A DNA stretch of 64,000 nucleotides from an uncultured Acidobacteriaceae bacterium (lineage in GTDB: Bacteria; Acidobacteriota; Terriglobia; Acidiferrales; UBA7541): contig CAVZCQ010000006.1 of NCBI GenBank assembly GCA_963773835.1, positions 46,061-110,060 of the forward strand, written 5' to 3'. Position numbers and translations under genes: made by a program. How positions within the stretch are numbered: position 1 is the stretch's first letter; every line of letters begins with the position of its first letter. Of the stretch, positions 23,389 through 44,946 are shown piece after piece. The notes under the pieces were generated by a model. It was not told where the DNA came from. It ran no database searches and saw nothing but the letters and a program-made list of their open reading frames with translations.

Positions 23389-23579
23389 TGCCTCTGGCGT
23401 GGTCACAATTCCTTGGGTGGATGGCCCTCGAACCGGCGCCCGGTACGACGGTCCCAGCAGTATTCCGTGAGAAAGTTGCGCGACCTCTCTGTCTCCCGCC
23501 CGGCCTGTGCTGTCGTCATGGTTGAGGAATGCGGCTGCCCCGCCGCCAATCGGAGCCATTGCGGGGCAAGGGGAACTCG

Positions 23580-32500: not shown

Positions 32501-35489
32501 TATGGGCGCCCAGGGCACCACCACCGGCACCATCACGCTGACGGGCACCAGTTTCTTCACTCCGGCCAGCATTTCGTTCAGCGCCATGGGCATCACGGCG
32601 AACAACGTGACGGTGACGAGCGCGACCACGATTACGGCCACCTTCACGATCGCAGGAAACGCAACGCTGGGGCCGCAGACCGTCTTTGTGACCACCGACG
32701 GCGTGACCACGGCCAACGTGGTGACCTTCACCGTGGACGCTCCGCCTACGGTGACCACGATCAGCCCGGGGATGGGCGGCCAGAACACCATGGTGTCGGA
32801 GACCATTACCGGGACCAACTTCTTCTCTCCCGCCACGGTGGCCGTGAGCGGGACCGGGGTGACGGTGAGCAACGTGATGGTGACGAGCCCGACGACCATC
32901 ACGGCCACGTTCACCATCGCCTCCAATGCCACGCTCTCCGGGCGTACCGTGTCCGTCACGACGAACGGAGTGACGGCCAACAGCCCGACGATGTTTACCG
33001 TGACGCCGCCGGTTCCCAACATCACCATGCTCAGCCAGACGATGGGAGCACAGGGGACGACCGTCAACCTGACCATCACGGGCACGAACTTTGTGACCGG
33101 GGCCGGCGGCAGCACAGTGAATTTCAGCGGCGCGGGCGTGAACGTATTGAACACGAACGCCACCAGCACGACAACAATTACGACGCAACTGATGATCACC
33201 GCCGGGGCCGCCCTGGGCATGCAGAACATCTCTGTGACCACATCCGGCGGAACCTCGAACAACGCCGCGTTTACCGTGGAGGCTCCGCCCACACTGACCA
33301 TGTTGAGTGTGACGAGCGGGGACGAGGGCACTACCACTCCAACGATTACTCTCACGGGGACGAATTTCTTCTCGCCCGCCACGATTTCATTCAGCGGGAC
33401 GGGGATCACGGCGAACAGCGTGATGGTGACCAGCACGACCACCATCACGGCAACGTTTACGATCGCGGCGAACGCAACGCTGGGTCCGCAGACCGTCTTC
33501 GTGACCACGGACGGCGTGACCACCTCGAACGTGGTGCAGTTCACCGTCAATCCGCCCGCGCCCACCCTCACCGCGCTCAGCCAGACCATGGGCGCGCGGG
33601 GAACTACCGTCAACCTCACGCTGACAGGCACGAATTTCCAGACTGGCGCCACGACGGTGAACTTCAGCGGCGCGGGCGTCACGGTCCAGAACACGATGGT
33701 GACCAGCGCCACCAGCCTCACCACGCAGTTTGTAATCGGCGCCGGGGCCGCGCTGGGCGCGCAGAACGTTTCGGTGACGACTGCGGGAGGCACTTCGGGG
33801 AACCAGTCCTTCACGGTGGAAGCCCCGCCCACCCTCACCATGCTCAGCCAGACGAGTGGGGATGAGGGCGCCACCACCGGCACGATCACGCTCACGGGCA
33901 CGAATTTCTTCACTCCGGCCAGCATTTCGTTCAGCGGCACCGGAATCACGGCCAACAGCGTGATGGTGACCAGCACGACAACGATTACGGCCACCTTTAC
34001 GATCGCCGCCAATGCCCCGCTCGGGGCGCAAACGGTCTTCGTGACCACCGACGGCGTGACCACTTCCAACGTGGTGCAGTTCACCGTCAACCCGCCCGCG
34101 CCCACGCTGACCATGCTCAGCGCGACTTCCGGGGTGCAGGGCAACACGGTGATGGAGACGCTCACGGGGACCAACTTCCAGATGGGAGCCGGGGCCACCA
34201 CGGTCAACATCACCGGGGCGAACATCATGGTGACCGGCACGAACGTGACCAGCTCCACGACGCTCACGGTGAATTTTGTGCTCGCGGCCAACGCCTCGCT
34301 CGGCGCTCAAAACGTAACGGTGACCACGGCCGGCGGCACGTCCGGTACGCAGACGTTCACCGTGCTTCCGCCGCCACCAACGCTCACCATGCTGAGCGCG
34401 TCCACCGGCGTGCAGGGCAACACTGTGGCAGAGACGCTGACCGGGACGAATTTCGTCGCCGGCGCGACGACCATCTTGTTCAGCGGCTCCGGAATCACCA
34501 CCACGAACGTGATGGTGACCAGCCCGACGACCCTGACGGCGAACTTCGTGATCAGCGCCACGGCCACGCTGGGCATTCAAAACGTATCCGTGATGACCGC
34601 CGGAGGGACATCGGGGACACAGCCGTTTACGGTGTTTCCGCCGCCGCCGACGATTACTGCCATCAGCCCGACAGGCGCCACGCTGGGAACTGCGAATCTG
34701 ATGGTGACGATCACGGGCACGAACTTCGTTACCGGGCCGCTCTTCAAGGTCAACGTGCCCGCCGGCCAGGGCATCACTGTGACGAACGCTACGGTGGTGA
34801 GCAGCACCATGATTACGGCGACGTTCACGATTGCGGCGAACGCCACCACGCCATTGCAGAACGTGACCGTGACCACGGCAGGCGGGACCAGCAACAACCA
34901 GCCCTTCGGCGTGGGCACGAACTTCACGATGACGGAGAATCCCTCCTCCAGCACGGTCATGGCAGGGGGAATGGCCGGCACCACGCTCACGATTATGTCC
35001 ACGACGCCAAACACTCAGTTCCCGGCCAACGTGCAGTTCTCCGCATCGGGACTGCCCAATCTTTCCACGTGCAACTTCACCAGCACGGCAGCCGGATTCA
35101 TGGGAGGCGCGACGGGAATCCTGCCGGCAGCCGACGGGACCGCGGCCATGACGCAGGTGATGTTCATGTGCACGACCACCAAGGCGTCATTCGTGGCGCC
35201 GCGCACGCCTGCACCCTGGGCACCGCTGGGCGCCTCGCCGCTCGTCGCTCTGGCCTGGGGAACGCTGCTGATGGCGCTCGGCGCAGGATTGGTCGCCGCC
35301 AGGCAGCAGCGCGGCCGCCGGCTGCAGTGGGCGCTCGCCGCCTTCCTGATCCTGGCCTTCGCAGGCTTCTCGAGCGCCTGCCACAACATGGGCATGCCGG
35401 GCACCATGCCGGGACCGTACAACATCACTGTGAAGGCCACCTCCGGCAACGCCACGCAGACCGTCACCTACACGCTGACGGTGCAGTAG
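23580..35489 (+). CDS. Giant secreted surface protein (~3969 aa): signal peptide, BNR/Asp-box beta-propeller, 1 IPT/TIG, PPC-like jelly-roll, ~29 tandem IPT/TIG domains, C-terminal split Ig-like module with TM hairpin
   Basis: Track ORF 23529..35489. I prefer ATG 23580 (RBS aagggga; the same start context ctcgATGAGACGC as the paralogue). About 9 Asp-box-like motifs are present (STDAGAHW, SIDGGMTF, SRDGAGNW, TANGGTSW...). The repeated unit is P.LT.[IL]S...G.QG.....LTGTNF....I.FSG.GIT...V.V.S.TTITATF.I...A.LG.Q.V.V.T.G.....FTV. Confidence 0.9.
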   Translation: MRRTCSMVFPLAVAGMLFYGCLFSPPLRAQTSGKTPAAGSSGAQDAETASGRRKEPDEVSRRQEWFYHQRRYPLARIPAGARQQALQQREASRREQVNRGMIAGNQNPDPPIIFNPWTAIGPQPTAANGFDFLQQITNTSNITDFSGRINAIAVDPKNNNIVYLGGADGGLWKSTDAGAHWLPLTDAQASLAMGAIAIDPGSCGGASCTTIYAGTGEANFAGDSYFGAGVLKSIDGGMTFTQLGATAGSVTFLSAVIPTSFVGPFDSQTGGAFFSDIVVNPTNSLQLLASVDFGAETKASGIFCSDNGGMNWKQVVAGAAGTAVVIAADGKTAFGALGDPGGLAANGIYRSTTANNTCATQTWTLLNAAPLPSGTAAGRISLGLAPSIATSPFTLYAAIANPLNQSSTFLDVFKSANTGTTWSATHAPDICQMQCFYDMVIKVHPNNSSVVFLGGSAVTNSNKMDIFLLRSTNGGGTWDAGNLTTDIAFDGTNEIHVDQHAIAFSPPTPGAGSYTMYVGNDGGAWDTPMTCNTINPGTCSTVAWTDLNLTLSLSQHYAGVSMHPASQLVVMGGFQDNGSQKYDAGTFPGSTAWTMINGSDGGATYIDRGVPSTVYATTEFIPNFSFITKSVTNGDLDSTNAITFSQATNGIDANGTGSDYSEFIPQLASDPTPGNNRVLYYPTCNLYQSRDGAGNWTAMTAASLCAAGLADYTTIAPAADGNTVYAGDSNGGVHVTTNAIRAANAAWTNVTKAPLPGRFITKIAVSPTNPQFALVAYSGFCGFNAGDNVGHVFETANGGTSWTDISGGCNGVVGQALPNTPVNDIVIDPADNTNQTFYVATDVGVFITSNGGGVWLQLDQQPRTLPDGVVLSLTLRNESRTLVAGLHGRGAWAMQLQSFMPAYGLASLTPVFAAQGSAADVMLTANGEGFVSGDTVQFNGVGLVTTFVSPTKLTATIPAAMLANRGTASITVFDATNMSSNALPFSVVLIYSAAAAAPPNDLFMNAIAVPASMTSFTDIQNTFAATMTPTDPNPSSVNGCILMGANIPPPASNGAANSIWYSYTPTTNAMVEADTVGSTVPLNNQGLFGTADTILEVVTGSPVAFTAVACNDDIVSGNFITSEVKFLAAANTTYFFMVSQYEGVGGITVFNLNATPMPTLTSITPNSGLTGSSFMVTLMGSGFTAPVTLNFNGTGGSFSNVQVVSSTMITATLTLASGLMTATDTVSVTNSEATSNTVNFQVTNGPPTLTSIAPSMGAQGAAIPVTLTGTNFDNSSAIVFGGTGITSSTPVVVNSTQITATFTISGTAATQTVMVTTMAGMSGTVQFTVNPAPTISSISPATGGQNSAITVTIIGTNFFSPATVTVSGTGVTVTNATVTSPTTITATFTIASNATISGRTVSVTTDGFTVNSPTMFTVTAPVPTLNSISPASGVLGVGGATQMESVTLTGSNFVAPVTINFSGTGITATSVTLQSSTTITAVFNIAPTTALGTQNVTVTAGGQTSGSQTFTVASPPTLTSISPTSGVVGTSVPVTLTGTNFFSPATINFSGTGITANSVTVTSGTTITATFVIAANAPLGGQTISVTTSGVTTSSMAVQFTVNPPAPTLTSLSLPMGAQGAASISETLTGTNFQTGAGNTTISFSGTGITASNINVTSSTSLTATFMVAAGASPGAQTVFVTTAGGASANMTTFTVEAAPTLTMLSQTTGVQGTTTSTITLTGMNFFSPASISFSGSGITANSVTVTSTTTITATFTIAANAPLGPQTVFVTTDGVTTSNVVQFTVNPPVPTLTSLSVTMGAQGGTVNETLTGTNFVSGATIQFSGSGITASNVVVVSATSITATFTILGTATPGAQNVTVMTSGGTSGSKPFTVESAPSLTSLSQTMGAQGTTTGTITLTGMNFFSPASISFSASGITANSVTVTSGTTITATFTIAAGATLGPQTVFVTTDGVTTANVVQFTVEAPPTLGMISPAGGDQGAAVPVTLTGTNFFSPAMVAVSGTGVTVSNVVVMNSTTITATFTIAANATLSSRTVSVTSDGVTTGTVMFGVNPPAPTLTALSVTMGAQGAVINETLTGTNFVTGAGNTTISFSGAGVTPSNINVTSATSLTATFTVAAGASPGAQTVFVTTSGGTSTNMTTFTVEAAPTLTMLSVTAGDEGTTTGTITLTGANFFTPASITFSGTGITANSVTVTSPTTITATFTVAANATLGAQTVFVTTDGVTTSNVVQFTVNPPAPTLTALSTTMGAQGAVIMETLTGTNFQMGAGTTTISFSGAGIVASNINVTSATSLTATFTVAANAAAGAQTVFVTTAGGKSANMTTFTVNAAPTLTMLSQTMGAQGTTTGSITLTGTNFFTPASISFSAMGITANNVTVTSATTITATFTIAAGATLGPQTVFVTTDGVTTANVVTFTVDAPPTVTMISPAMGGQNTATNVTITGTNFFSPAVVNITGTGVTVSSVMVTSPTTITATFTIASGATLSGRTVTVMTNGATTATGVTFTVIPPVPNITMLSPTIGAQGTTVNLTITGTNFLVGAGNTVNFGGAGVTVMNTNGTSATTITTQLVIAAGAALGAQNISVTTSGGTSNNSPFTVEAPPTLTMLSQTSGNQGTTTPTITLTGTNFFSPATISFSGTGITANSVMVTSTTTITATFTIAANATLGPQTVFVTTDGVTTSNVVQFTVNPPVPTLTLLSQTQGAQGTTVSLTLTGANFIMGATTVNFSGAGVTVQNTMVTSATTLTTQFVIGAGAALGAQNVSVTTAGGTSGNQTFTVEAPPTLTMLSLTTGVQGTTTSTITLTGTGFFTPATISFSGTGITANSVTVTSTTTITATFTIAAGAALGPQTVFVTTDGVTTSNVVQFTVNPPAPTLTALSTTMGAQGAVIMETLTGTNFQMGAGTTTISFSGAGIVASNINVTSATSLTATFTIAANAAAGAQTVFVTTAGGKSANMTNFTVEAAPTLTSLSQTMGAQGTTTGTITLTGTSFFTPASISFSAMGITANNVTVTSATTITATFTIAGNATLGPQTVFVTTDGVTTANVVTFTVDAPPTVTTISPGMGGQNTMVSETITGTNFFSPATVAVSGTGVTVSNVMVTSPTTITATFTIASNATLSGRTVSVTTNGVTANSPTMFTVTPPVPNITMLSQTMGAQGTTVNLTITGTNFVTGAGGSTVNFSGAGVNVLNTNATSTTTITTQLMITAGAALGMQNISVTTSGGTSNNAAFTVEAPPTLTMLSVTSGDEGTTTPTITLTGTNFFSPATISFSGTGITANSVMVTSTTTITATFTIAANATLGPQTVFVTTDGVTTSNVVQFTVNPPAPTLTALSQTMGARGTTVNLTLTGTNFQTGATTVNFSGAGVTVQNTMVTSATSLTTQFVIGAGAALGAQNVSVTTAGGTSGNQSFTVEAPPTLTMLSQTSGDEGATTGTITLTGTNFFTPASISFSGTGITANSVMVTSTTTITATFTIAANAPLGAQTVFVTTDGVTTSNVVQFTVNPPAPTLTMLSATSGVQGNTVMETLTGTNFQMGAGATTVNITGANIMVTGTNVTSSTTLTVNFVLAANASLGAQNVTVTTAGGTSGTQTFTVLPPPPTLTMLSASTGVQGNTVAETLTGTNFVAGATTILFSGSGITTTNVMVTSPTTLTANFVISATATLGIQNVSVMTAGGTSGTQPFTVFPPPPTITAISPTGATLGTANLMVTITGTNFVTGPLFKVNVPAGQGITVTNATVVSSTMITATFTIAANATTPLQNVTVTTAGGTSNNQPFGVGTNFTMTENPSSSTVMAGGMAGTTLTIMSTTPNTQFPANVQFSASGLPNLSTCNFTSTAAGFMGGATGILPAADGTAAMTQVMFMCTTTKASFVAPRTPAPWAPLGASPLVALAWGTLLMALGAGLVAARQQRGRRLQWALAAFLILAFAGFSSACHNMGMPGTMPGPYNITVKATSGNATQTVTYTLTVQ
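27042..34919 (+). repeat. In-frame tandem array of ~29 IPT/TIG-domain coding repeats (unit ~270-285 nt)
   Basis: Counted by eye from the translation, one unit per ...FTV[NEDT][PA] boundary. Several alternating subtypes are visible (NINVTS type, FF[ST]PA[ST]ISF type, GQN...VTS type, PNITMLS type). Confidence 0.85.
30291..34091 (+). repeat. Two consecutive ~1.9-kb super-repeats (7 IPT domains each; 30291-32189 and 32190-34091) that are near-identical at nucleotide level
   Basis: Offsets of 1899 and 1902 nt. The stretches I compared by eye (about 30241-30860 vs 32141-32760, and 31381-31690 vs 33281-33590) differ at only a few percent of positions. Confidence 0.8.
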
Positions 35490-35495
35490 GGGCGG

Positions 35496-35514: not shown

Positions 35515-35619
35515 CTTTACGCGGCCATTTCGGAACGCCGCACGACGGCCGCGCGTGTCAACCGGGCGGGATTAACCCGCCCCGACACTCTCGGAGCAGT
35601 GGCCCGGCCAGGGAGCTCG

Positions 35620-38600
35620 ATGAGACGCGGTCCTTCGGTGGTCTTTCTTTTTGGGGTGGCCAGCCTGGTACTGGCCGGATGGCTCATCTCCCTTCCGCTC
35701 CGGGGGCAATCCACGGGGGACCGTCCGCCAACAGCGAATCCGCGGGATGACGGAGACGAAAATTCCGCCTCGGGCCCTGAGAGTGAACGCGACGACGTCC
35801 GCGGCCGGGAGGAGTGGTTCTATCGCCAGCGGCGGTATCCGCTGGCGGCGATTCCGGGTGGCGCGCGACTGAAGGCGCTCGAGCGAAAAGAGGAGATGCG
35901 CCGCGCGCAGCGCGAACAGCGCAACGGCTCCGGCGGCGCGAATGCGAGCACCTTCATCGCCCTCCGAATGCTGGCCAGTGCCACGGCGTGGACTCCCATC
36001 GGTCCGACGCCGACCGCAGATGCCGACCCTGCCGTGGGGCTGGTATCGGGCCGGGTCACTGCGATCGCGGTGGACCCCACGAACTCCAACATTGTTTTTG
36101 TGGGTGGCGCCCAGGGCGGTGTGTGGAAGTCCACCGACGGGGGAGCGCACTGGCTGCCCATGTTCGACACGGAAAAAACGCTGGCCATCGGCTCGATCGC
36201 CATCGACCCTTCGAGCTGCGCTCCGGCGCCTTGCACAACCCTGTATGTGGGCACCGGCGAGCAGAATTTCTCCGGCGATTCCTACTATGGAGCGGGCATC
36301 TATAAATCCACAGATGGCGGCATGACCTGGGCCCAGGTCCTGGGCGAAACCATCCTGAACCCGCAGCCCGCCGCGCCGGATTCCTTTCTTCCGCCGGCAG
36401 CGCCGTTCAACCAGGCTGTCGGCGGCGCGCGCATCGGCGCATTGGTTGTGCATCCGGCGACGCCAACGCGAATTTTCGCTGCCGTGCAGATCTTCGAGAA
36501 CGTGGGAGGCGGCGCCAGCTCCGGCATCTATTGCTCGGATGATGAAGGCTCAACGTGGACGCAAGTAATTTCCGGCGCCATCGGAACCGACGTGGCCATC
36601 AATGCGACGGCAGGGATTGGCTATGCGGCGCTGGGATCAAACAATGGGGACACAGACAACCGCGACACGACAGGCCAGAACGGCGTGTACAAGTCCGTCA
36701 ATGTCAATGCGGCTTGCGCGAGCCAAACCTGGACGCTGGTGAGCAAGGCGCCCGTCCCACTGGCCACCGCTGCGGGGACGATCCGGCTGGGACTGGCCCC
36801 CTCCGACGCCAGCGGCAATACCTTGTACGCCGCGGTCACCAATCCCATCTCCTCGACCCCGCCTTTCAATACCACGCTCGCCGGCGTGTTCAAGACGGTC
36901 AATGGGGGGACGACGTGGACCGTCGTCACTCCTTCCCAGGATTTCTGCATGAACCAATGCGATTACGACCTGGCGCTGAAGGTTCACCCCAACGACGCCA
37001 ATACCGTATTTGCCGGCGGGTCGGCGGTCCGCGACAACGGCGGCCAGCCTTTCTTCCTGCTGCGAACGAACGACGGCGGCGCCACCTGGACGCAGATCGC
37101 GCAGGATTCAGGCGGCACGCTGCTGCACGTGGATCAGCATGCCATCGCATTTGGATTTACTGGTGCGAATGTGAGCTCGATCTTTGTGGGCAACGATGGG
37201 GGAATCTGGCGCTCGCCGCTGGCTGCGCCCATGAGCCCCATTGCCTGGACGAACCGGAACCAGACTCTGCAGCTCTCTCAGTTCTATCCCGGGATTTCGA
37301 TGGATCCGGCGACGGCGAATCTCGGCTTCGGAGGCACACAGGACAACGGCACGCAGAAATATGACGTCGCGGCCAACCCTCCGAACCAGTGGATTGAGCA
37401 GGCCCCGTGCGGGGACGGCGGCTACACGGCGATTGATCCGGCTTCGCCGAGCACCATTTATGCGGCTTGCCAGAAGATCCGTATTCGCAAGTCATTCAAC
37501 GACGGGGCGGACAATTTCTTCACCGCCGCGGACAGCGGCATCGCGCAATCCGACCGGTCTGAGTTCATCCCCCCGCTGGTGATTGATCCGAATCCGGCCA
37601 GCTCCAACCGGCTGTACTTCGGTACGTACCGCGTGTGGCAGACCGCCAACGGAGGAGGAAGCTGGATCGCGATTTCCCCCGATCTGACCGCCGGTCCTGC
37701 GAACTCCCCCGATTTGACCAGCCTCTCTGTGTCTCCCGTGAATTCCGACGTAGTTTACGCAGGAACGTTTGACAGCAAAGTGTGGCGCACCACAAATGCC
37801 AGCTCCGGGAGCGGAGCCACATGGACGGAACTGGACGGGGGTACGCTCCCGCCGCGAGCCATCACCGAGGTTGTCGCCGACCCCAACCGTGCGGATTCCG
37901 TGTTCGTCACCGTTTCGGGTTTCAGTGGATTCCAGATCAACCCGCCGGCGACGGACACGCAGGGGCACGTGTTCCGTTGCTCCGCCACCCAGTCCTCCTG
38001 CACGGACATCAGCGGCGCTGGGGCCGGCGCTTTGCCTAACGTGCCGGTCAACGCCATCGTGGTGGACCCGATTGACGCCATCAGCGACACCCTGTACATC
38101 GGCACCGACGTCGGCGTGTTTGCGAGCCTGGACGGAGGCACCACCTGGCAGCCCGATTTTCCCGGGGCGCCGAATGGGCTGCCCAACGTGGCCGTACTTT
38201 CATTGACGCTGCAGCCCACGGTGCGAATTCTGCGGGCCGGCACGCACGGGCGCGGCGCCTGGGACCTGCAGCTTTCCAATGTGGCGCCTCTCCGGCTGGC
38301 CTCCCTGGCGCCGAACACCGCGCCGGTGACCACGATGAGCCTGTTGCTGACGTTGACCGGAGGGGGTTTCACATCGAACTCCACGGTATTGTTCAACGGC
38401 GTCACGCACACGCCGTCGTTGCAGAGCTCGATGCAGATGACGGCCACGCTGAATGCGGGCGACTTTTCGAGCGTCGGCCCGGTGAACGTGCAGGTATCCG
38501 ACCCGGTGGGCGGCCTCTCCGACACGATGACTTTCACGATCACGAACGACTTCAAGTTCTGTGTGGGTGTGAGCGCGGGCATGGCGTGCCCCATCACGGG

Positions 38601-39165
38601 CTCTGGTTCCACACCCCGCGGGGTTGCGCTGGCCACCCCGCTCACGATTATGCCTGCCCAGAGCGCTCCCTTCCCTGCCAACGTGCTGTTCTCCTGTTTG
38701 GGATTGCCGAACGAGTCGTCGTGCAACTTCACGAGCACCGCGCCTGGATTCAGCGCCAATCCGCCGACGTTGCCAGCCTCCGCTGGAACGATGGGGAACA
38801 CGCAGGTGACCGTATCGTTCATGACCACCGCCCCGTCGCTCGTGGCGCCGCGAGGGCGCCGGCGGGGGCCCCCGGTGGCCGCGCCGCCGGTCGTAGTCTT
38901 TGCCTGGGGCTCGCTGCTGGCCGCACTGAGCGCCGGGCTGATCGCCGCTGCTCGCCAGCGCCGCACACGGCTGCGTTGGGTATTCGCGGTCCTGCTGCTC
39001 CTGGCGTTCGCGGGGATGACCGGCGGCTGCGGAGGCAGCAGCGGGAATGGAGGCGGAGGAGGCGGGGGAAATCCAGGGACCATGCCGGGAACATATCCCA
39101 TCACAGTGATGGCCACGTCCGGCAGCGTGTCTCACAGCGTCACGTACACGCTGACGGTGCAGTAG
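35620..39165 (+). CDS. Paralogue of the giant gene without the IPT array (~1181 aa): signal peptide, BNR/Asp-box propeller, one IPT/TIG, the same C-terminal split Ig/TM-hairpin module
   Basis: Track ORF 35599..39165; ATG 35620 has RBS agggag. The N-terminus is collinear with the giant protein (GRVTAIAVDPTNSNIVFVGGAQGGVWKSTDGGAHWLPMFD vs [40 protein letters not shown]). The last 9 aa, VTYTLTVQ plus stop, are identical. Confidence 0.9.
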   Translation: MRRGPSVVFLFGVASLVLAGWLISLPLRGQSTGDRPPTANPRDDGDENSASGPESERDDVRGREEWFYRQRRYPLAAIPGGARLKALERKEEMRRAQREQRNGSGGANASTFIALRMLASATAWTPIGPTPTADADPAVGLVSGRVTAIAVDPTNSNIVFVGGAQGGVWKSTDGGAHWLPMFDTEKTLAIGSIAIDPSSCAPAPCTTLYVGTGEQNFSGDSYYGAGIYKSTDGGMTWAQVLGETILNPQPAAPDSFLPPAAPFNQAVGGARIGALVVHPATPTRIFAAVQIFENVGGGASSGIYCSDDEGSTWTQVISGAIGTDVAINATAGIGYAALGSNNGDTDNRDTTGQNGVYKSVNVNAACASQTWTLVSKAPVPLATAAGTIRLGLAPSDASGNTLYAAVTNPISSTPPFNTTLAGVFKTVNGGTTWTVVTPSQDFCMNQCDYDLALKVHPNDANTVFAGGSAVRDNGGQPFFLLRTNDGGATWTQIAQDSGGTLLHVDQHAIAFGFTGANVSSIFVGNDGGIWRSPLAAPMSPIAWTNRNQTLQLSQFYPGISMDPATANLGFGGTQDNGTQKYDVAANPPNQWIEQAPCGDGGYTAIDPASPSTIYAACQKIRIRKSFNDGADNFFTAADSGIAQSDRSEFIPPLVIDPNPASSNRLYFGTYRVWQTANGGGSWIAISPDLTAGPANSPDLTSLSVSPVNSDVVYAGTFDSKVWRTTNASSGSGATWTELDGGTLPPRAITEVVADPNRADSVFVTVSGFSGFQINPPATDTQGHVFRCSATQSSCTDISGAGAGALPNVPVNAIVVDPIDAISDTLYIGTDVGVFASLDGGTTWQPDFPGAPNGLPNVAVLSLTLQPTVRILRAGTHGRGAWDLQLSNVAPLRLASLAPNTAPVTTMSLLLTLTGGGFTSNSTVLFNGVTHTPSLQSSMQMTATLNAGDFSSVGPVNVQVSDPVGGLSDTMTFTITNDFKFCVGVSAGMACPITGSGSTPRGVALATPLTIMPAQSAPFPANVLFSCLGLPNESSCNFTSTAPGFSANPPTLPASAGTMGNTQVTVSFMTTAPSLVAPRGRRRGPPVAAPPVVVFAWGSLLAALSAGLIAAARQRRTRLRWVFAVLLLLAFAGMTGGCGGSSGNGGGGGGGNPGTMPGTYPITVMATSGSVSHSVTYTLTVQ

Positions 39166-39272: not shown

Positions 39273-41696
39273 CTAGGGCACAATCGGAATCGTAAAGTTC
39301 CGCTCCACGAACTGCCCCGCGGGAGTCGCTGGAAGAACCGAGGCATCGGTCACCCGGATGATGAATCCATTGACGCCGCCGCAGGTGGTCCCGGCCGTGC
39401 CAGCGGCAGTTCCGGAGATCTCGCCCGAAGTCGGGTTCAGCGTCAGACCGGCACAATTCGGATCCGACGCCAGGACGCCGTCCGGATTGCTCCAGGTGCG
39501 CTTCACGGCTCCGGTGGAGTCCACGACCGTGCCGCCGGCTGCCACGATAAAAGTGGCGTAGGGGTTTGCCGCCAGCGAAGCCGACGGAAGAGCGAATGGA
39601 GAGGCCGGGGCAAAGCCACCGGTGGTGAAATGGAGCGCCGGATCCACCATCAGGTCGAGTAGCTGCGGGCAGGAGCCTCCGTTGCCGCAAGGGTTTGTCG
39701 GAGCAGCGGAGAGCGGCGCCGGGTCAGTTGAGATGGCCGGGTCGATCACGGCTACGTCGGTCGCAATGTTGTACTCGATGGGGATGATGGTGTCCGAATC
39801 TTGGCAGCTCACGAATAAACGAGTGCCGGAGGGGGCGCCCGTCAATCGGGCCTTGATATCAACCGGCGTTTCGCAGCCCGATATCTGCGGGTTGGTACCG
39901 GGAGGCACGGGCAGGCTGATTGTGGCCACGGGAGCGGTGAAGTTGACCGTGCTGAGGTCCCCTGCCGAGATGTCGTACACCTGCACCGCGTTGTTGATCT
40001 GAGGCGTATTTGTGACGTCAAGACAATTGACAAACAGGCGATTGCCATCCGGCGAGGCGGTGAGGCCGGACACCACGTCGCCGTTCGCGCAGACATTGGC
40101 CGGCACGGTCGGGATCGTGTTGACCTGGGTGGAACCCGCCGACGCCGTAGTGATGGAGACAAAAATAAAGGCCCCGGTATTGTCGCGTGTGGCCGTATAC
40201 ACGTAATTCCCGCGCGGGTCCGTCGCGATTCCTCCTGCTCGCAGCCCGTTGCTCAGTGTGGTGGCCACGGTGGGAGCGGCGGCAATAGGTGTAGTGGGAA
40301 GACTCAGCACGCTGAACGTCGTGCACGGGGGGTTAGCTCCGACACAAGTTCCCGAGGGCAGATAATTCAAGGACAGGAAAGCCAAGCTGCCATCCGTGCT
40401 CAACGAAATGTTGTTGGCGTTGGGGACGATAAGGGCATCAGCTCCCGACAGGGTAGTCGGCACGAGTCCCGGATCTTCGGCGTCCGGAATCGGCTCCACA
40501 GTGGCTGAAGCCTGAGCACCGTCCGTGGGCTCGGACAGCCAGGCGTCATACCGGAAATTCCTCTGGACGGAGCAGGGAGGCGTTCCGCACGCAAACGCAG
40601 TGGAAAAGAACTTCTGGTTCCCGATATCAATCGCGCTGGGGTTGAACGTACCCGTGTTCGATACCACGATGGAATTGACCGCCAAGTCGCTGGCTGCGCA
40701 TCCCGGCGCCACGCACCCCGTGACCGTCGAGATCGAGTCAACCACCGAAACGTCGTGAGTATTCCCCTGTTTAGGCGCGTACACCCACTCGCCATCCGGT
40801 GAAACGCGGGCCGCAACCGGGTTGGCAGGGTTGACCGCGCTCGTTCTCAAGGAGATGAAGTTGACGGGGCTGAAGCCGTTGCTGTCGAAAGACACCACCG
40901 TGGAACCCATCTCTGCAGCACCCGATGCAAAGGTGGCTACGAAACCGTACTCCGGGAGAACTTTGTTGGTGGTGGTAAAGGTCGGGCAAGTGGTGGCGGT
41001 GGTGCAATTGGGCGTGGTGGGGTTGCTCGAATCGGTCACCGTAAAGGTGGTGGAGATCGTCGGCGTGCCCGGGGTGGAAGCCGTCGTGGGCGTTCCAACG
41101 TAATATCCCCTCTGTTGGGTCGCATCGTCGGTGGGCAGCGGAGAGGGATTGACGAACACGACTCCAGCTATCCCGCCCGCTGTCGTGGACCATGTGTAAG
41201 CAGGAGGAGGAGCGGCAGACGGGATTCCCCCGTTGTTGCTATAGAAAATCGCGCTATAGGGCTCGCCCACCGTGCCGTTCTCCAGGAACGTGTTTCCGAT
41301 CGTCAGCTCGGGAACTACGGTGATCGAGTCGGTGTTCCTCACACTGGCCGGGTCAGTGGCCACGGTGGCTGCCGGGGTGGTGGCATCGGCCGTATCCGCG
41401 AGGGTTATGGTGCCGGTCGCAGTGCTCCCCGTCACCCCGGCGCCTCCGCTATTGCAAGTCAACGTCAGCGTGGAATCCGCAGCGTTCGCTTGCGTGGGGC
41501 AGGTAATCGGCGTGGGGAAGCCCGAGCCCATGATCATCACGGTCGGCAGCCCTTCGCCGGCTGCCACCATGTAAGTCAGGTCCTGACTACCCTGCGGCGT
41601 GCCGTACTGCCGCCCGGTGACGGCATTCGTCACAGGGTTGGGACTCGGCAGGCTGATCGCCAATTGAAGACGGATGGTGATCGTTTTGGAAACCAC
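39273..41696 (-). CDS. C-terminal part (~815 codons) of a large lipoprotein adhesin: cadherin-like/He_PIG-type Ig modules + YVTN/lactonase-like beta-propeller + terminal Ig module; joined to the upstream ORF by a frameshift
   Basis: The apparent GTG start is an artefact. The frame is open upstream and reads ...SSTGTTAVVSKTITIRLQLAISLPSPNPVT, continuing the repeat pattern of the upstream ORF. Propeller-like blades include GNYVYTATRDNTGAFIFVSI, NRLFVNCLDVTN and GTRLFVSCQDSDTIIPI. Confidence 0.8.
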   Translation of the reverse strand: MVSKTITIRLQLAISLPSPNPVTNAVTGRQYGTPQGSQDLTYMVAAGEGLPTVMIMGSGFPTPITCPTQANAADSTLTLTCNSGGAGVTGSTATGTITLADTADATTPAATVATDPASVRNTDSITVVPELTIGNTFLENGTVGEPYSAIFYSNNGGIPSAAPPPAYTWSTTAGGIAGVVFVNPSPLPTDDATQQRGYYVGTPTTASTPGTPTISTTFTVTDSSNPTTPNCTTATTCPTFTTTNKVLPEYGFVATFASGAAEMGSTVVSFDSNGFSPVNFISLRTSAVNPANPVAARVSPDGEWVYAPKQGNTHDVSVVDSISTVTGCVAPGCAASDLAVNSIVVSNTGTFNPSAIDIGNQKFFSTAFACGTPPCSVQRNFRYDAWLSEPTDGAQASATVEPIPDAEDPGLVPTTLSGADALIVPNANNISLSTDGSLAFLSLNYLPSGTCVGANPPCTTFSVLSLPTTPIAAAPTVATTLSNGLRAGGIATDPRGNYVYTATRDNTGAFIFVSITTASAGSTQVNTIPTVPANVCANGDVVSGLTASPDGNRLFVNCLDVTNTPQINNAVQVYDISAGDLSTVNFTAPVATISLPVPPGTNPQISGCETPVDIKARLTGAPSGTRLFVSCQDSDTIIPIEYNIATDVAVIDPAISTDPAPLSAAPTNPCGNGGSCPQLLDLMVDPALHFTTGGFAPASPFALPSASLAANPYATFIVAAGGTVVDSTGAVKRTWSNPDGVLASDPNCAGLTLNPTSGEISGTAAGTAGTTCGGVNGFIIRVTDASVLPATPAGQFVERNFTIPIVP

Positions 41697-44600
41697 GGCT
41701 GTGGTTCCGGTGCTCGAATCCGCTGGGCGTCGTCGCGTTGGCCGTATCGTCGAAAGTGATCATGAATGGGTATGCCCCGGCTGTGGCCCCAATTGGCGTA
41801 GTCCCGCCAGTGCAGGTAACCACAGTGTTCGCGCCGTTGGCAGTGCAAGCCACCGCGCTGGGAACGCCGTTTACTGCGGGAGCACCCACGGTAGCCGGCA
41901 GGGTGATCGTGTACCCAGTTGCGCCGGGAATACCGCCCATGGCGTCGTAAATCAAAGCCTTGAAGCCGGCCATGGTATTGCCGTAGGTCCGGTTGACGAC
42001 GCCGAACGGTGGCGGGTCAACGCTCGCTGCATCCACGGTGAACGACAGGGCGGCGTTAACCGTGAGCGAGTCCATCCTCTGGCTGGCAGGGTCGGTGCCC
42101 GTGGTGGCGGCCGGAGTGGTGGCGTTTGCCGTATCGGTAGCGGTGACCGTACCGGTGGCAGTGGCTCCGGTGACGTTCATGTTGCTGCTGTTGCAATGCA
42201 TCGTCAGCGTGGAATCTGCTGCGTTGTTTACCGTGGTGCAGGTAATGGGGGCGGGGAAGCCCGCGCCCATCAGGGTGACGGTCGGCAACCCCTCGCCCGC
42301 CGACAGGCTATACAGCAGGTCCTGACTGCCCGCAGGAGTGCCGTACGGGCGTCCGTTGACCGCGGGGGTCACAGGATTCGGACTCGGCGCGTTGATTGCC
42401 AGTTGCTTCCGGATGGTGATGGTCCGGGCAATATTGGAGGTGGTGCCGGACTGCGAACCGCTGGGCGTTGTTGGGTTGGCCGTGTCGTCCAGAACGATCT
42501 GGAACGGGTACGCACCGAACGCCGCCGTAATTACCGCGGCCCCGCTCGTACACGTGTCCACCGTGCCGGCGGCGTTGGGAGTACAGGCCACATTCTGGGG
42601 AACGCCGTTCGCCGCAGGGGCAGCCACCGAAGGCGGCTGCGTAAACGTGTAGCCCGTCACTGCGTTCGGAATTCCGCCCGTGGCGTCATAGATGAGAGCT
42701 TTGAAACCAGCGCCTACGTTGCCGTATGTCCGGTTGACCACCCCGTTGGTCGGCGGGTCTTGTCCCGCCGCATCCGGAGCGAGCGCCAGCGGCAGATTCA
42801 CGGTGATCGAGCCGGGAATGGCGGCCGGCTGGGTCCCCGAGGTCATGGCGCTCGGCGTGGTGGCGTTTGCAGTGTCATTCAGCGTGATCGAGAAACTATA
42901 TAGGCCCATGCCCGCCGAAACCGTTGAGGCGCCGCTAGTGCACTCCTCTTTTGTCGCGCTCGTCATGGTGCAAGCTACGGCATTCGGCACCCCGGTGCCC
43001 GGCGCGTTGATCGTCGCCGGGAGTCCAAATATGTAAGCCGGCAATCCGCCCGTGGCATCAAAGGCCAAATCCTTGAATCCAGCCCCCGTATTTCCATAGC
43101 TCCGGCCCATTACCGCAGGGGGCGCGGGATTCACTGCGGCAGAGTTGACATCGACGGCCAGGGCCAGCACTGCATTCACGTTGATCGAGGCAGGTGTGGA
43201 AGGTTGCGTCCCCGAGGCCATGGCGCTGGGCGTGGCCGTGTTGCCCGTGTCATTCGGCGTGATCGTGAAGGAATACAACCCGGGGCTCGCCGATACCGTG
43301 GAGGCGCCGCTGGTGCACTCCTCCTTTGTCGCAGCCGTCTGGGAGCAGGCCACCGCATTCGGCACACCGGTGCCGGGAGCGTTGAGCTGTGTCACCGCCG
43401 CAAAGGTATAGGGAGTCAGCCCTCCGGCAACATCGAACGCCAAATCCTTGAAGCCCGCAGCAGTGTTCCCGTAGGTCCTGCCCATGACGGCCGCAGGCGC
43501 GGGATTAACAGCCGGCACCCCCGCGGGGTCCAGCGACAGCGTCAGCGCCGGGTGGATCGTCAGCGCCACCGCTGCGGACGCCGGGATCGTGTTGGCCGGA
43601 ACGACCACCACCATCATCCCAGGCAGCAAATTCGGATCGAAAATCGGCGAATCCTTACCCGTAACGGTCAAGCTCAACGAGCCCGGGGACGTCGCCATAC
43701 TCAAGTTGCCCGTGCTCGCCAGGTCGCAAGTTGCCGGCGCTGCAACGGTCTCCCCCAGCGGGTTCCCCATCAAATTGGTACCCGCCGTGAATCCACAGGC
43801 TGTCAGCGGCATGTTGCCGACGGTCGCGGATACGTTCGTCGTCAGCGGGGGAGGCGCAAGAGGAGCATTGCCGTACGTGCGCCCCACCACTCCGTCGGGA
43901 AACGCAGCAGGCAGGGGGGTGTTGAAACTGAACTCCGAGCGCACCATCAAGTTGTTGGCGAAAGCGCCCGCCGCACTGGTACCGGAAGGCACCACCAGCA
44001 GATCCCCCGCTGGCACAGCGGCACCCGCAGCAAGGGGAATGACGGCTCCCGAGGGGAATGTCTCGACGAGTTGGGTATCCGTTGCCGTGACTGCCACCTG
44101 CGTCGGATCGGACACCGGGGGCATCCCGGACATCAGCCCGGCAGCGTTCGCCGGCCCGTTAATCGTGAAGGTGCACGCCGCGGTCGTGGCGGCGGGGGCC
44201 GTGCTGGCAAGCCCATCGAAGGGCAGCCCGACAACCATGCAGGTATATGGAGCTCCAGCCATAGCAAGTTGAGTTCCGCCCGTGATCGCGACCGAGAGAT
44301 TCTGCGTGTAGGCGCGGCCATTCACGGCATTGGCCAGGGAGAGCGCGGAGGCGTTTGTCGCCAGCGCCGGATTGATCGTGAGAGTAAGGGACGGCGAGAA
44401 AGCTACCTGTGGCGTCGGCGTGCCACTGTCCGTCACCTTGACGGATACCGCGCTGGAGCTCGCTACCGTGGCCATGCCCGTAACCTGACAGGACGTTCCG
44501 CCACCGGGAGTCGCGCTGAACGTTGCGGAAGCGCCAGAGAGGGGTCCCGCCGCTTGGAGGACACACGTGAATGGCGCCGTCCCTCCGGTGAAAACAAAAT

Positions 44601-44850
44601 CGTACGTATACGAGCGTCCAGCAACTCCGTTCGCCAATGCTGAGGTTGTAAACACCAATCCGCCCGGGTTCGGAATGGGGAGCCCGGAGGGCAGACCATG
44701 CGAGCCGCTCGCGCAGCCGGACAGGCCGCCCAGCGCGGCGAGCATCAGCACAAGGGCGCAGGCGCTTGCCACCCAGGAAATCTTCGAATGGGGAGTTGAG
44801 GCAGACCCTGCCAACCCCGCAGTTTCTACGTGCGATCTGGAAAGAAACAT
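41587..44850 (-). CDS. N-terminal part of the same lipoprotein adhesin: lipoprotein signal peptide + ~9 Thr/Ala/Gly-rich Ig-like (He_PIG/cadherin-like) modules; the true reading frame leaves this ORF near 41719
   Basis: ATG 44850 has RBS gggagga 6 nt upstream (the track ORF starts at GTG 44907). The signal is HSKISWVASACALVLMLAALGGLSGC with lipobox LSGC. The ~125-aa modules repeat as ...NPAP.AVMGR.YGN..AGFK.L.[FY]D..GG...Y.F... Confidence 0.8.
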   Translation of the reverse strand: MFLSRSHVETAGLAGSASTPHSKISWVASACALVLMLAALGGLSGCASGSHGLPSGLPIPNPGGLVFTTSALANGVAGRSYTYDFVFTGGTAPFTCVLQAAGPLSGASATFSATPGGGTSCQVTGMATVASSSAVSVKVTDSGTPTPQVAFSPSLTLTINPALATNASALSLANAVNGRAYTQNLSVAITGGTQLAMAGAPYTCMVVGLPFDGLASTAPAATTAACTFTINGPANAAGLMSGMPPVSDPTQVAVTATDTQLVETFPSGAVIPLAAGAAVPAGDLLVVPSGTSAAGAFANNLMVRSEFSFNTPLPAAFPDGVVGRTYGNAPLAPPPLTTNVSATVGNMPLTACGFTAGTNLMGNPLGETVAAPATCDLASTGNLSMATSPGSLSLTVTGKDSPIFDPNLLPGMMVVVVPANTIPASAAVALTIHPALTLSLDPAGVPAVNPAPAAVMGRTYGNTAAGFKDLAFDVAGGLTPYTFAAVTQLNAPGTGVPNAVACSQTAATKEECTSGASTVSASPGLYSFTITPNDTGNTATPSAMASGTQPSTPASINVNAVLALAVDVNSAAVNPAPPAVMGRSYGNTGAGFKDLAFDATGGLPAYIFGLPATINAPGTGVPNAVACTMTSATKEECTSGASTVSAGMGLYSFSITLNDTANATTPSAMTSGTQPAAIPGSITVNLPLALAPDAAGQDPPTNGVVNRTYGNVGAGFKALIYDATGGIPNAVTGYTFTQPPSVAAPAANGVPQNVACTPNAAGTVDTCTSGAAVITAAFGAYPFQIVLDDTANPTTPSGSQSGTTSNIARTITIRKQLAINAPSPNPVTPAVNGRPYGTPAGSQDLLYSLSAGEGLPTVTLMGAGFPAPITCTTVNNAADSTLTMHCNSSNMNVTGATATGTVTATDTANATTPAATTGTDPASQRMDSLTVNAALSFTVDAASVDPPPFGVVNRTYGNTMAGFKALIYDAMGGIPGATGYTITLPATVGAPAVNGVPSAVACTANGANTVVTCTGGTTPIGATAGAYPFMITFDDTANATTPSGFEHRNHSRGFQNDHHPSSIGDQPAESQPCDECRHRAAVRHAAG

Positions 44851-44946
44851 ACACGTCCTCCCATGAGTACGGAGTGCGAAGACAAAGTGGCCCGACCCCA
44901 AATACACGACGACCCCTCAGCGTCCGTCGTTTTGGCAAGCTACTAC

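Follow-up and report, generated by a model that had tools for sequence, protein, structure and literature searches.

Two paralogous genes in the window (the whole 64,000-nucleotide stretch of DNA analysed here) end in one and the same module, which, as judged by sequence comparison, is an Ig-like domain carrying about 80 residues inserted in the loop before its last two strands. Both copies are almost certainly members of the NCBIfam family invert_tail (NF058595.1, “lipo-invert putative C-terminal anchoring domain”) and examples of a conserved anchoring module that arose through an insertion within an Ig-like domain. Sec export, hairpin insertion, lipidation by Lgt, cleavage by LspA and a strand-complemented tail together provide what we consider the best explanation of this architecture, with a probability of roughly 0.6.

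Anatomy of the two copies

The short-paralogue gene (35599..39165, + strand; 1188 aa), taken from the ORF list and its translation, encodes a signal peptide, a BNR/sortilin-type beta-propeller (Pfam Sortilin-Vps10, E=1.3e-10), one choice-of-anchor Z repeat (NCBIfam CoaZ_rpt_PGGG, 60.7 bits) and the invert_tail module, in this order. The N-terminal Sec-type signal peptide (35599..35706, +), read from the translation, ends in MRRGPSVVFLFGVASLVLAGWLISLPLRG with the putative cleavage site just before QS; the true start may be the ATG at 35620. The protein is secreted. The module comprises the last 205 residues (38548-39162, +), for which the protein string quoted in the first-pass annotation matches the translation exactly. 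Its Ig-like body (38548..38835, +) holds the strands before the insertion (AF2 strands 4-92, pLDDT mostly 86-96) and ends in the family-conserved TTAP, of which TTA is nearly invariant across the invert_tail family. A Pro/Arg-rich linker, SLVAPRGRRRGPPVAAPP (38836..38889, +), carries the weak family motif TTAPSxxAPR and leads into TM helix 1, VVVFAWGSLLAALSAGLIAAA (38890..38952, +; AF2 helix 114-136), an uncharged hydrophobic run that is presumed to be a stop-transfer helix directed from the outside to the cytoplasm. The Arg cluster RQRRTRLR (38953..38976, +) between helix 1 and helix 2 is presumed to form a cytoplasmic loop that doubles as the n-region of an internal signal, for which TM helix 2, WVFAVLLLLAFAGMTGG (38977..39027, +; AF2 helix 140-160), would provide h-region and lipobox. 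The Cys at 39028..39030 (+), whose codon had been placed correctly, is invariant in the family and a candidate site for diacylglyceryl attachment and LspA cleavage. It is directly followed by a Gly/Ser tether, GGSSGNGGGGGGGN (39031..39072, +), and then by the two-beta-strand tail PGTMPGTYPITVMATSGSVSHSVTYTLTVQ (39073..39162, +; AF2 strands 181-191 and 194-204, pLDDT 94-97), which completes the Ig-like domain and directly precedes the stop codon (39163-39165, +).

The long-paralogue gene (23529..35489, +; 3986 aa; ORF list) encodes a signal peptide, a propeller region with 43% identity to that of the short copy, 29 choice-of-anchor Z repeats and, at the C-terminus, its own invert_tail module (34920..35489, +); the sequence quoted earlier for 34920-35486 is the translation of that stretch. 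On the + strand, its elements are the Ig-like body (34920-35186), the linker (35187-35240), TM1 (35241-35300), the Arg cluster (35301-35321), TM2 (35322-35378), the Cys (35379-35381), a short linker after it (35382-35396) and the tail (35397-35486). The claim that both paralogues share one order of elements is borne out by translations, alignment and element coordinates, and AF2 predicts a helical hairpin and the same layout in each copy (pLDDT 85.2 for the short and 87.4 for the long one).

A split Ig-like domain

The description of the module as a split Ig domain was likewise upheld. A module profile of 106 positions from which the hairpin had been deleted aligns over positions 2-105, end to end, to uninterrupted tandem Ig-like repeats of about 98 aa in large surface proteins of Acidobacteriota such as P0080 (13 repeats), P0010 (9) and P0064 (about 10); single repeats are matched with E-values of 1e-17 to 1e-25. 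These repeats belong to the same domain family as the module, but have a loop of only 3-6 residues at the site where the module has its insert of about 80 residues. Aligned to the intact proteins of the window, this hairpin-deleted profile breaks at the insertion point, position 75/76, into body and tail; in the short copy, the body covers positions 10-81 and the tail, which is homologous to the last strands of the uninterrupted repeats, positions 76-106. The structural comparisons agree. The tail strands are modelled with pLDDT values of 94-98 in both copies, and in Foldseek alignments single Ig domains of 103-123 residues extend over about 200 columns of a 189-residue query, an extent showing that the alignment bridges the hairpin and uses body and tail; the 205-residue model gave the same picture. 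From the pLDDT values and the extent of these alignments we infer that the tail packs against the body. The domain is distinct from the CoaZ repeats of the same proteins and has no Pfam family of its own, the matches to DUF5980, NPCBM_assoc, CARDB, He_PIG and others being weak.

Selection on the module

An alignment of the two modules covers 187 codons, of which 96 encode identical residues (51%), and VAPR, the Arg cluster, LAFAG..C, PGTMPG.Y.ITV.ATSG and VTYTLTVQ are conserved between them. This similarity is far beyond chance: a tblastn search of the window with one tail returned the other tail at E=5e-32 and nothing else convincing, and detected no third copy besides 34920-35486 and 38548-39162. 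With dS values of 0.5-1.4 between the modules, the duplication must be old. The dN/dS is 0.22 for helix 1, 0.47 for helix 2 with the lipobox, 0.35 for the tail and 0.49 for the Ig body, values above 1 being confined to the 7-codon Arg cluster and the two short linkers. The ratio is thus not close to 1 across the module, which refutes a recent neutral duplication. Comparison with an orthologue at a syntenic locus (P0009), 69% identical to the short paralogue, gave a whole-gene dN/dS of 0.18, with segment values of 0.17 for the body, 0.32 for TM1, 0.19 for the Arg cluster, 0.20 for TM2 with the lipobox and 0.10 for the tail, the most constrained segment; the Pro/Arg linker is the least constrained (0.58). 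The structured parts of the module are shown by these values to be under purifying selection. The earlier proposal that selection acts on the arrangement, as opposed to a read-through artefact, is supported by the orthologue ratios of 0.10-0.32 and by the in-frame, terminal recurrence of the module in 141 of 150 listed representatives.

Family membership and distribution

In NCBIfam release 20.0 (June 2026), the curated cut-off of invert_tail is 37 bits. The short protein scores 86.9 bits as a whole and 91.5 bits as the module alone (E=4e-26 for the short-copy region), and the long copy, searched as its C-terminal 429 aa, scores 56.1 bits; the 113-position model is matched nearly end to end (profile positions 2-113 and 4-113). 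The window copies share their C-terminal position and element order with the 141 module-bearing representatives described below, and since nothing structurally different from that family was found, we regard them as members. A literature search found no publication or experiment on the family; the module is already curated by NCBIfam, yet unpublished.

A full HMMER scan returned 7361 cluster representatives at E<=1e-3, of which 964 reach E<=1e-10. Among 150 listed representatives, 141 carry the module, most of them matching the whole 125-position profile, and 140 of these 141 have it at the very C-terminus, the exception (P0068) having extra sequence after the tail. Nine independent contigs from genomes or metagenomes of Acidobacteriota show the same in-frame C-terminal arrangement. 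All genome matches fall within Acidobacteriota, where the module is common. The passenger domains ahead of it are diverse (sedolisin, BNR/sortilin propellers, SBBP+DUF7948, NHL and ASH-type Ig), and 41 of 62 sequences of at least 600 aa, cluster duplicates included, pass a threshold for a hydrophobic N-terminus, most of the others appearing truncated. Diverse passengers with N-terminal signal peptides are the behaviour of a sorting signal, which we count in favour of anchoring.

Lipobox geometry

In the alignments A1, A2, A3 and A6 the Cys is invariant, and it is present in every module-bearing match that was read. Among 136 parsed modules, the residue at -1 is A, S or G in 132 and H, T or Q in four, Leu is the commonest residue at -3, and Pro stands at -2 in 13. 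Gly occupies +1 and +2 in 129 modules and +3 in 114, Asp directly after the Cys occurs in none of the 136, and G and S make up 86% of the first 10 tether residues across the family. Median values are 18 aa for the uncharged run ahead of the Cys, and 8 aa with a net charge of +4 for the loop that precedes helix 2. A PROSITE-like lipobox core fits 106 of the 136 modules and is missed by 30 (22%). The family linkers consist of 20% Pro and 10% Arg, with P at +8 in 54 of 111 and R at +9 in 37 of 111. A neighbouring gene (41587..44907, -) encodes an ordinary N-terminal signal ending in LSGC, which suggests that the host organism uses the ordinary lipoprotein pathway and is counted in favour of lipidation. 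Based on these sequence features, the module Cys is probably lipidated.

Proposed mechanism and alternatives

The following sequence of events is hypothetical with regard to topology, lipidation, LspA cleavage and what becomes of the hairpin. The N-terminal signal peptide would route the large ectodomain through Sec; the insert, composed of the Pro/Arg linker, a stop-transfer helix, the cytoplasmic Arg cluster, a helix 2 resembling a lipoprotein signal and the Gly-rich tether, would then enter the membrane, with helix 1 halting transfer and helix 2 re-inserting so that its C-terminal end lies outside. This would bring both Ig halves to the periplasmic side, where they would fold with each other. 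The helix 2 region, with its Arg n-region, h-region of about 18 residues and [A/S/G]-Cys lipobox, could serve as a lipoprotein signal: Lgt would add diacylglycerol to the Cys and LspA would cut just before it. The product would be a lipidated tail of 35-49 residues whose two strands are locked in the Ig sandwich; the C-terminus of the ectodomain would thereby be attached to a lipid through non-covalent contacts, making an “inverted” lipoprotein, and the residual hairpin might either stay as a second anchor or be removed. That the Cys is both lipidated and cleaved, with the tail holding on by strand complementation, has in our estimate somewhat less than an even chance.

Several points count against this mechanism. 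We know of Lgt and LspA acting on N-terminal signals only, and an internal signal at residue ~1140 behind another TM helix lies outside the tested range. The 30 modules that miss the lipobox core are a further such point. After an LspA cut the ectodomain would keep the hairpin, so the lipid would add little unless a second cut removed it, and the family linkers give no sign of such a site beyond the weak TTAPSxxAPR motif. In the short copy, four Arg in the linker before helix 1 face five in the loop, and this Arg-rich linker weakens the positive-inside contrast. The long copy leaves just 5 residues between the Cys and the first tail strand, so that its geometry is tight.

If the chain stayed uncut, the hairpin would simply hold the protein in the cytoplasmic membrane as a two-pass anchor, the Ig-like domain tolerating it as a long loop and the Cys being lipidated without LspA cleavage, as an extra anchor, or conserved otherwise. 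Such an arrangement would account for the two confident helices with a basic loop between them in both AF2 models, for the modules deviating from the lipobox core and for the absence of an evident second cleavage site; moreover, folding of the Ig-like domain needs both ends of the insert on one side, which a hairpin alone achieves. We nevertheless consider it unlikely, because it has no need for an invariant Cys, for A, S or G at -1 in 97% of modules or for Gly at +1/+2 (129/136) and +3 (114/136). A single C-terminal TM helix would also be simpler than a hairpin threaded through a domain loop, and the uncharged run of helix 2 (median 18 aa, lipobox included) has a length typical of signal-peptide h-regions and short for a stable TM span.

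The involvement of a dedicated sorting enzyme appears distinctly improbable. LPXTG, PEP-CTERM, GlyGly-CTERM and MYXO-CTERM signals are tripartite, consisting of a motif, a TM helix and an Arg cluster (10.1101/2023.06.07.544157). The module presents TTAPSxxAPR, helix 1 and the Arg cluster in that order, the motif is moderately conserved and the passengers are diverse, so that a sortase-like or intramembrane protease might cut there, with or without transfer to another acceptor, lipobox and tail acting as co-anchor or recognition element. However, this signal is not C-terminal, about 60-70 conserved residues coming after it; TTA also occurs in the uninterrupted repeats and therefore belongs to an Ig strand; and only about one third to one half of the members have APR. 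No known CTERM model matched at E<=0.1, and neither the window nor the syntenic locus yielded a candidate enzyme. Hardly credible, finally, is an artefact, in which a large secreted protein gene would be joined to that of a small lipoprotein by read-through or fusion, or one copy would be a recent duplicate under neutral drift. High-GC DNA does contain many long spurious ORFs, and the two copies have 28 identical nucleotides in common across the stop codon. Such a reading is refuted by the in-frame, terminal recurrence in 141 listed carriers and nine independent genomic loci, by the homology of the halves flanking the insert to one Ig-like domain, by paralogues that are only 51% identical with dS of 0.5-1.4 and dN/dS below 0.5 in structured parts, and by the low orthologue ratios.

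Relation to known systems

The proposed lipidated module mirrors lipoprotein signal peptides (Lgt/LspA/Lnt), its Arg cluster, hydrophobic run of ~18 residues, [A/S/G]-Cys and Gly/Ser tether corresponding to n-region, h-region, lipobox and tether, and its internal signal resembles the N-terminal one of the neighbour at 41587..44907. A classical lipoprotein has its signal at the N-terminus and the whole mature protein after it, whereas the module signal lies ~1140 residues in, behind a TM helix, with 35-49 residues following the Cys. To our knowledge, processing of such an internal lipoprotein signal has not been documented. With C-terminal sorting signals of the LPXTG/CTERM type, the module has in common the local order of motif, TM helix and Arg cluster and probably the purpose of anchoring diverse secreted passengers at the C-terminus. 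Those signals, however, are the last ~25-35 residues and are removed by a dedicated enzyme, and where they contain a Cys it precedes the TM helix; in the module, the Arg cluster is followed by another helix, a lipobox Cys and a folded tail of two strands, and the general lipoprotein machinery could suffice for its anchoring.

Strand complementation in Ig-like folds is known from engineered split proteins and from chaperone-usher pilins, in which the donor strand belongs to the product of another gene and is used for polymerisation. Should LspA cleave the module, its last Ig strands would likewise be provided by a separate polypeptide, but, unlike in pilins, both parts would derive from a single chain and serve lipid anchoring. 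Pilin subunits are among the weaker Foldseek matches of the 205-residue model.

Paired C-terminal modules in adjacent genes

The module at 38548-39162 (+) forms the C-terminus of ORF 35599..39165 (+, 1188 aa; the short protein), and its counterpart at 34920-35486 forms that of the preceding ORF 23529..35489 (+, 3986 aa; the long protein). The first-pass annotation had described them as two copies of one split arrangement of an Ig-like domain, a transmembrane (TM) hairpin and a lipobox, and the translations of both intervals are exactly the strings quoted there. In the short copy, an Ig-like body (38548-38835) is followed by a Pro/Arg linker containing VAPR (38836-38889), helix 1 (38890-38952), the basic cluster RQRRTRLR (38953-38976), helix 2 (38977-39027), a Cys whose codon lies, as annotated, at 39028-39030, a Gly/Ser linker (39031-39072) and a tail (39073-39162), all on the forward strand. 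The order of elements is equal in the long copy, and both modules run right up to the stop codon. Pairwise alignment gave 96 identities over 187 aligned residues, with every motif singled out in the annotation kept. A tblastn search of the window with one tail returned the other as its sole match (E=5e-32), so that the window holds exactly two copies of the module.

The short protein begins with a signal peptide (..LISLPLRG/QS), continues with a BNR/sortilin-type propeller (Pfam Sortilin-Vps10, E=1.3e-10) and carries one choice-of-anchor Z repeat between the propeller and the module. The long protein has a signal peptide resembling that of the short one, is 43% identical to the short protein over its N-terminal approximately 1000 residues, and bears 29 choice-of-anchor Z repeats plus the module. 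The sequence MLFYGC in the long protein's signal peptide (23529-23680) also matches a lipobox-like pattern; we regard this match as coincidental because neither the short paralogue nor its orthologue has a Cys at this place.

The module belongs to a curated NCBIfam family

Both copies match the NCBIfam model NF058595 "invert_tail" (release 20.0; 113 positions; curated cut-off 37 bits), described as "lipo-invert putative C-terminal anchoring domain". The short copy scores 86.9 bits within the whole protein and 91.5 bits as the module alone (model positions 2-113), and the long copy scores 56.1 bits (positions 4-113). Since these scores lie above the curated cut-off, the module belongs to the invert_tail family. 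The family layout, as read from its members (alignments A1, A2, A3 and A6 and 136 parsed modules), comprises a TM helix, a basic cluster, a second hydrophobic helix, an invariant Cys, a Gly-rich stretch and a G.Y..T...G....LTV tail, and both copies fit it. With default HMMER filters the match is dropped from the full-length 3986-aa protein, in the NCBIfam hmmscan as well as in our own hmmsearch; it is recovered with --max (E=4e-43) or when the C-terminal 429 aa are used. The module is thus easily missed, and annotation pipelines may overlook it where a repeat protein is very long.

Queried with the 205-aa module, a word-indexed homology search yielded four relatives, all with the same element order and the invariant Cys. 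An exhaustive HMMER scan with the alignment of these relatives matched 7361 cluster representatives (50% identity) at E<=1e-3, of which 964 reached E<=1e-10. The module is borne by 141 of the 150 matches listed, most of which cover the full profile (positions 2-125), and the Cys is present in each module-bearing match that was read. In 140 of these 141 proteins the module ends 0-5 residues from the C-terminus, the exception (P0068) having extra sequence after the tail. The listed module-bearing proteins range from about 100 residues (contig-edge fragments) to more than 2000 residues; N-terminal signal peptides are present in the apparently complete members, and the passengers are diverse, including sedolisin-type peptidases, BNR/sortilin propellers, SBBP propellers with DUF7948, NHL repeats and ASH/Cep192-type Ig domains. 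Three short matches (P0063, P0099 and P0100) were considered as free-standing mini-lipoprotein genes and rejected: their sequences start within helix 1 or the basic loop that immediately follows, and they resemble contig-edge fragments.

A genome scan returned no fewer than 11 loci, all in Acidobacteriota (Terriglobia, Acidobacteriaceae, Acidoferrales, Acidipila and Terracidiphilus), a number that is a minimum and no survey because the search patterns, derived from a four-sequence alignment, were narrow. At nine loci, including a metagenome contig, the module sits in frame and closes a stop-to-stop reading frame, of 681-1283 codons in seven cases and only 248-305 codons in two. Public records of members carry generic names or the label hypothetical protein. 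Our literature search found no paper on the lipo-invert family, its NCBIfam accessions, choice-of-anchor Z or an internal lipobox, and nothing relevant on a C-terminal lipobox or transmembrane arrangement in Acidobacteria. As far as found, the module is a further member of a kind already curated in NCBIfam for which the literature holds neither publication nor experimental test.

A helical hairpin inserted into an Ig-like domain

Several of the top family-profile matches cover only the last approximately 40 positions and do so repeatedly within one protein (26, 16, 13, 10 and 9 stretches), a pattern that pointed to homology between the tail and the final part of an ordinary tandem repeat. We built a profile of 106 positions from 52 modules from which everything between TTAP and the tail had been removed. 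Over positions 2-105, this hairpin-deleted profile matches each of 13 repeats of P0080 and nine of P0010, and most repeats of P0064, all homologous database proteins, with E-values of 1e-17 to 1e-25 per repeat; in these uninterrupted repeats, 3-6 residues stand in place of the approximately 80-residue insert (...LTVSTAAN TPTGNYTLTITGTSGS...). Against the intact proteins of the window, this profile aligns in two pieces that abut at profile position 75/76, namely residues 1000-1085 plus 1158-1188 of the short protein and residues 3797-3886 plus 3956-3986 of the long protein. In evolutionary terms we take it as shown that the hairpin was inserted into the loop preceding the final two strands of an Ig-like domain, which the annotation had described as split. 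The possibility that the interrupted domain is itself a choice-of-anchor Z repeat was rejected, as none of the 29 such repeats matches the hairpin-deleted profile.

AlphaFold2 models of both copies contain the body strands, two helices and two tail strands. For the short copy (60 sequences, mean pLDDT 85.2), body strands span residues 4-92, helices 114-136 and 140-160, and tail strands 181-191 and 194-204 (pLDDT 94-97); for the long copy (61 sequences, mean pLDDT 87.4), the corresponding elements are 2-85, 107-129 and 133-151, and 165-175 and 178-188 (pLDDT 96-98). Foldseek against the PDB retrieved Ig-like beta-sandwiches, among them a GH123 N-terminal domain, a sialidase linker domain, the S-layer protein SbsC, an adhesin CLIPPER domain, a BIgI domain and antibody V domains, at modest E-values of 3e-4 to 1e-2. 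Single domains of 103-123 residues were aligned across about 200 columns of the 189-residue query, meaning that the alignments cross the hairpin and use body and tail together; the 205-residue model gave the same picture. Judged from these predictions and modest scores, the tail probably packs with the body. A sequence search of the PDB with the hairpin-deleted profile gave a best E-value of 0.15 and hence no solved close relative, and Pfam likewise has no family specific to the hairpin-deleted domain, its weak matches being scattered over Ig-like families. The domain is therefore not assignable to a named Ig family.

Selection on the arrangement and conservation of the tandem pair

The first-pass annotation had argued for selection on the arrangement over a read-through artefact, with neutral divergence after a very recent duplication as a further alternative. 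Nei–Gojobori estimates of dN/dS for the two paralogues are 0.49 for the Ig body, 1.17 for the linker before helix 1, 0.22 for helix 1, 1.51 for the Arg cluster (7 codons), 0.47 for helix 2 plus lipobox, 0.35 for the tail and 0.375 for the N-terminal region, values that are weak standing alone given segments of 7-74 codons and partly saturated dS (0.5-1.4; 1.4 in the N-terminal region). For this reason we added a comparison of the short paralogue with its orthologue P0009 (1185 aa, 69% identical, whole-gene dN/dS 0.18), which gave, in the same order, 0.17, 0.58, 0.32, 0.19, 0.20, 0.10 and 0.18; as dS is saturated here too (1.1-2.3), these ratios are upper-bound-like indicators of constraint and not precise values. 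A dN/dS of about 1 across the whole module is seen in neither comparison, and the annotation's argument for selection holds.

The orthologue's locus (L013:5576-9862 and L013:10001-13558) is syntenic with the window, both having in common the order MacB/FtsX permease, response regulator, sigma factor, large secreted protein, propeller protein, large minus-strand gene and CarboxypepD_reg outer-membrane barrel. Upstream of the orthologue, in the place held in the window by the 3986-aa choice-of-anchor Z giant, lies a gene for a sedolisin + Big_3_5 protein of 1428 aa whose C-terminus is likewise an invert_tail module. Since both genes bear the tail, the tandem pair is conserved while its upstream passenger has been swapped.

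Resemblance to lipoprotein signal peptides

A lipobox rule of the PROSITE PS51257 type requires six uncharged residues followed by the core [LIVMFWSTAG](2)-[LIVMFYSTAGCQ]-[AGS]-C. In both copies a positively charged n-region precedes an uncharged h-region (RQRRTRLR then WVFAVLLLLAFAGMTGG in the short copy, RQQRGRR then LQWALAAFLILAFAGFSSA in the long copy), and both match the lipobox core, with MTGG-C and FSSA-C, neither being the classical L-A-G-C. Of 136 family modules, 106 match this core. Across the 136 parsed modules, position -1 to the Cys is occupied by A, S or G in 132, Leu is commonest at -3, and Gly follows the Cys at +1 and +2 (129 each) and at +3 (114); Asp directly after the Cys occurs in none. 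Median lengths are 18 residues for the uncharged stretch leading up to the Cys and 8 for the loop joining the two helices (median net charge +4), and tails of 35-49 residues follow the Cys.

The module is therefore alike to lipoprotein signal peptides in composition and geometry, but it fails their defining N-terminal position. The Cys, expected within about the first 40 residues, lies at residue 1144 of 1188 in the short protein and at 3951 of 3986 in the long one, which makes the module lipoprotein-signal-like at most and neither protein a classical prolipoprotein. An ordinary N-terminal lipoprotein signal is found in the same organism (..LAALGGLSGC, gene 41587..44907 (-), an ORF without a Pfam domain).

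Proposed anchoring mechanism and alternative explanations

We are confident, at a probability of roughly 95%, that the window holds a conserved invert_tail anchoring module made by insertion into an Ig-like domain. Considering Sec export and the Lgt/LspA/Lnt pathway, both well established, we infer the following multistep mechanism in which (i) the N-terminal signal peptide would start export; (ii) helix 1 would stop transfer, the Arg cluster remaining cytoplasmic; (iii) helix 2 would re-insert with its end outside, an out-in-out hairpin topology being required because the two Ig halves must meet; (iv) the Arg cluster and helix 2 would then resemble a prolipoprotein signal to the cell; and (v) Lgt would lipidate the Cys and LspA would cut before it. 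The resulting lipidated, Gly-tethered beta-hairpin, locked in the ectodomain's Ig sandwich, would give the protein a lipid anchor at its C-terminal end, in keeping with "lipo-invert", the name chosen by the curators. The Cys is probably lipidated, whereas for LspA cleavage with the tail held by strand complementation we would put the chances slightly below even. Strand complementation is known from chaperone-usher pili; the arrangement proposed here recalls it, but within one gene product.

Such a cut would leave the hairpin attached to the ectodomain unless a second cleavage followed, and the sole hint of one is a weak TTAPSxxAPR motif in the linker between TTAP and helix 1 (38836-38889 and family-wide), which consists of 20% Pro and 10% Arg. 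The linker's Arg residues, on the side of helix 1 presumed to be periplasmic, could be the mark of a protease site. Quite tentatively, we extend the proposal to a full pathway in which, after LspA cleavage at the internal lipobox, a triacylated beta-hairpin of about 40 residues would be held by strand complementation, the TM hairpin would be clipped or degraded, and Lol would deliver to the outer membrane or the cell surface both the lipid and its non-covalently bound passenger (1000-4000 residues); Lol transport would be possible because no Asp directly follows the Cys.

Besides the retained hairpin, several points count against the proposed lipidation and cleavage: 22% of modules deviate from the lipobox core, the linker before helix 1 is itself Arg-rich, the Cys and the first tail strand are separated by a mere five residues in the long copy, and we know of no internal signal of this kind that serves as a substrate of Lgt or LspA. 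The main rival, an anchor that stays uncut and spans the membrane twice, is in our view unlikely, though a serious contender. Still less probable is a dedicated sorting enzyme of an unknown kind acting on TTAPSxxAPR, helix 1 and the Arg cluster. The tripartite signals LPXTG, PEP-CTERM, GlyGly-CTERM, PGF-CTERM and MYXO-CTERM share the likely purpose of the module and, locally, its succession of motif, TM helix and Arg cluster; in contrast to these, the signal in the module is not terminal, as the Arg cluster is followed by another 62 residues in the short copy and 52 in the long one, and its Cys comes after the second helix, while theirs, where there is one, precedes the first. No CTERM model matches, invert_tail being the sole NCBIfam match to the module at E<=0.1, and the genes scanned in the 64-kb window included no sortase, exosortase, rhombosortase or CPBP-type gene. 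That the module is a read-through artefact or a neutral duplicate is very hard to credit, given the dN/dS estimates and its in-frame, C-terminal position in the nine loci and in 140 of the 141 module-bearing relatives. We thus find the observation real and its interpretation in the first-pass annotation confirmed.

Acidobacteriota are among the most abundant soil bacteria and possess many very large secreted enzymes and repeat proteins. In at least several hundred protein clusters (50% identity) the representative ends with this module, among them sedolisin peptidases, BNR, NHL and SBBP propellers and the 3986-residue repeat protein. If the lipobox is used, C-terminal lipid anchoring would proceed without a dedicated sortase-like enzyme, the housekeeping lipoprotein machinery being sufficient, and this would be, to our knowledge, the first natural lipoprotein signal acting from inside a folded domain. 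If true, the split-domain, non-covalent "inverted lipoprotein" would represent a new protein-sorting principle serving, on current data, hundreds of large enzymes and adhesin-like proteins of Acidobacteriota. The split-domain evidence sharpens this hypothesis and makes it directly testable.

Additional observations

A scan for terminators and promoters around both genes was uninformative. The two paralogues share 28 identical nucleotides (35469-35496 and 39145-39172; ACGCTGACGGTGCAGTAGGGGCGGC...) that cross the stop codon into the 3' flank, whereas the remainder of the module is far more diverged; this identity may reflect local gene conversion or the shared start of a 3' hairpin. ORFs 39273..41696 and 41587..44907 (-) overlap by 110 nt and correspond to a single 1316-aa gene in the syntenic locus, and may represent a frameshift or two genes. 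On the metagenome contig L001 (790 kb), four consecutive same-strand gene calls at L001:6867-10735 (a pro-kumamolisin activation domain, an unknown protein, Big_3_5 and the tail-bearing P0003) look like one sedolisin-invert_tail gene broken by frameshifts. P0156, a member of the P0009 cluster (same length, >=90% identical), is deposited as a protein of a "Patescibacteria group bacterium" MAG (HVN07539.1); its contig is probably mis-binned, as its relatives and gene context look acidobacterial. Elsewhere in the window, 49554-53795 (-) encodes a 1413-aa protein with an unusual fusion of a Ser/Thr kinase domain, TPR repeats and a C-terminal TonB_C domain.
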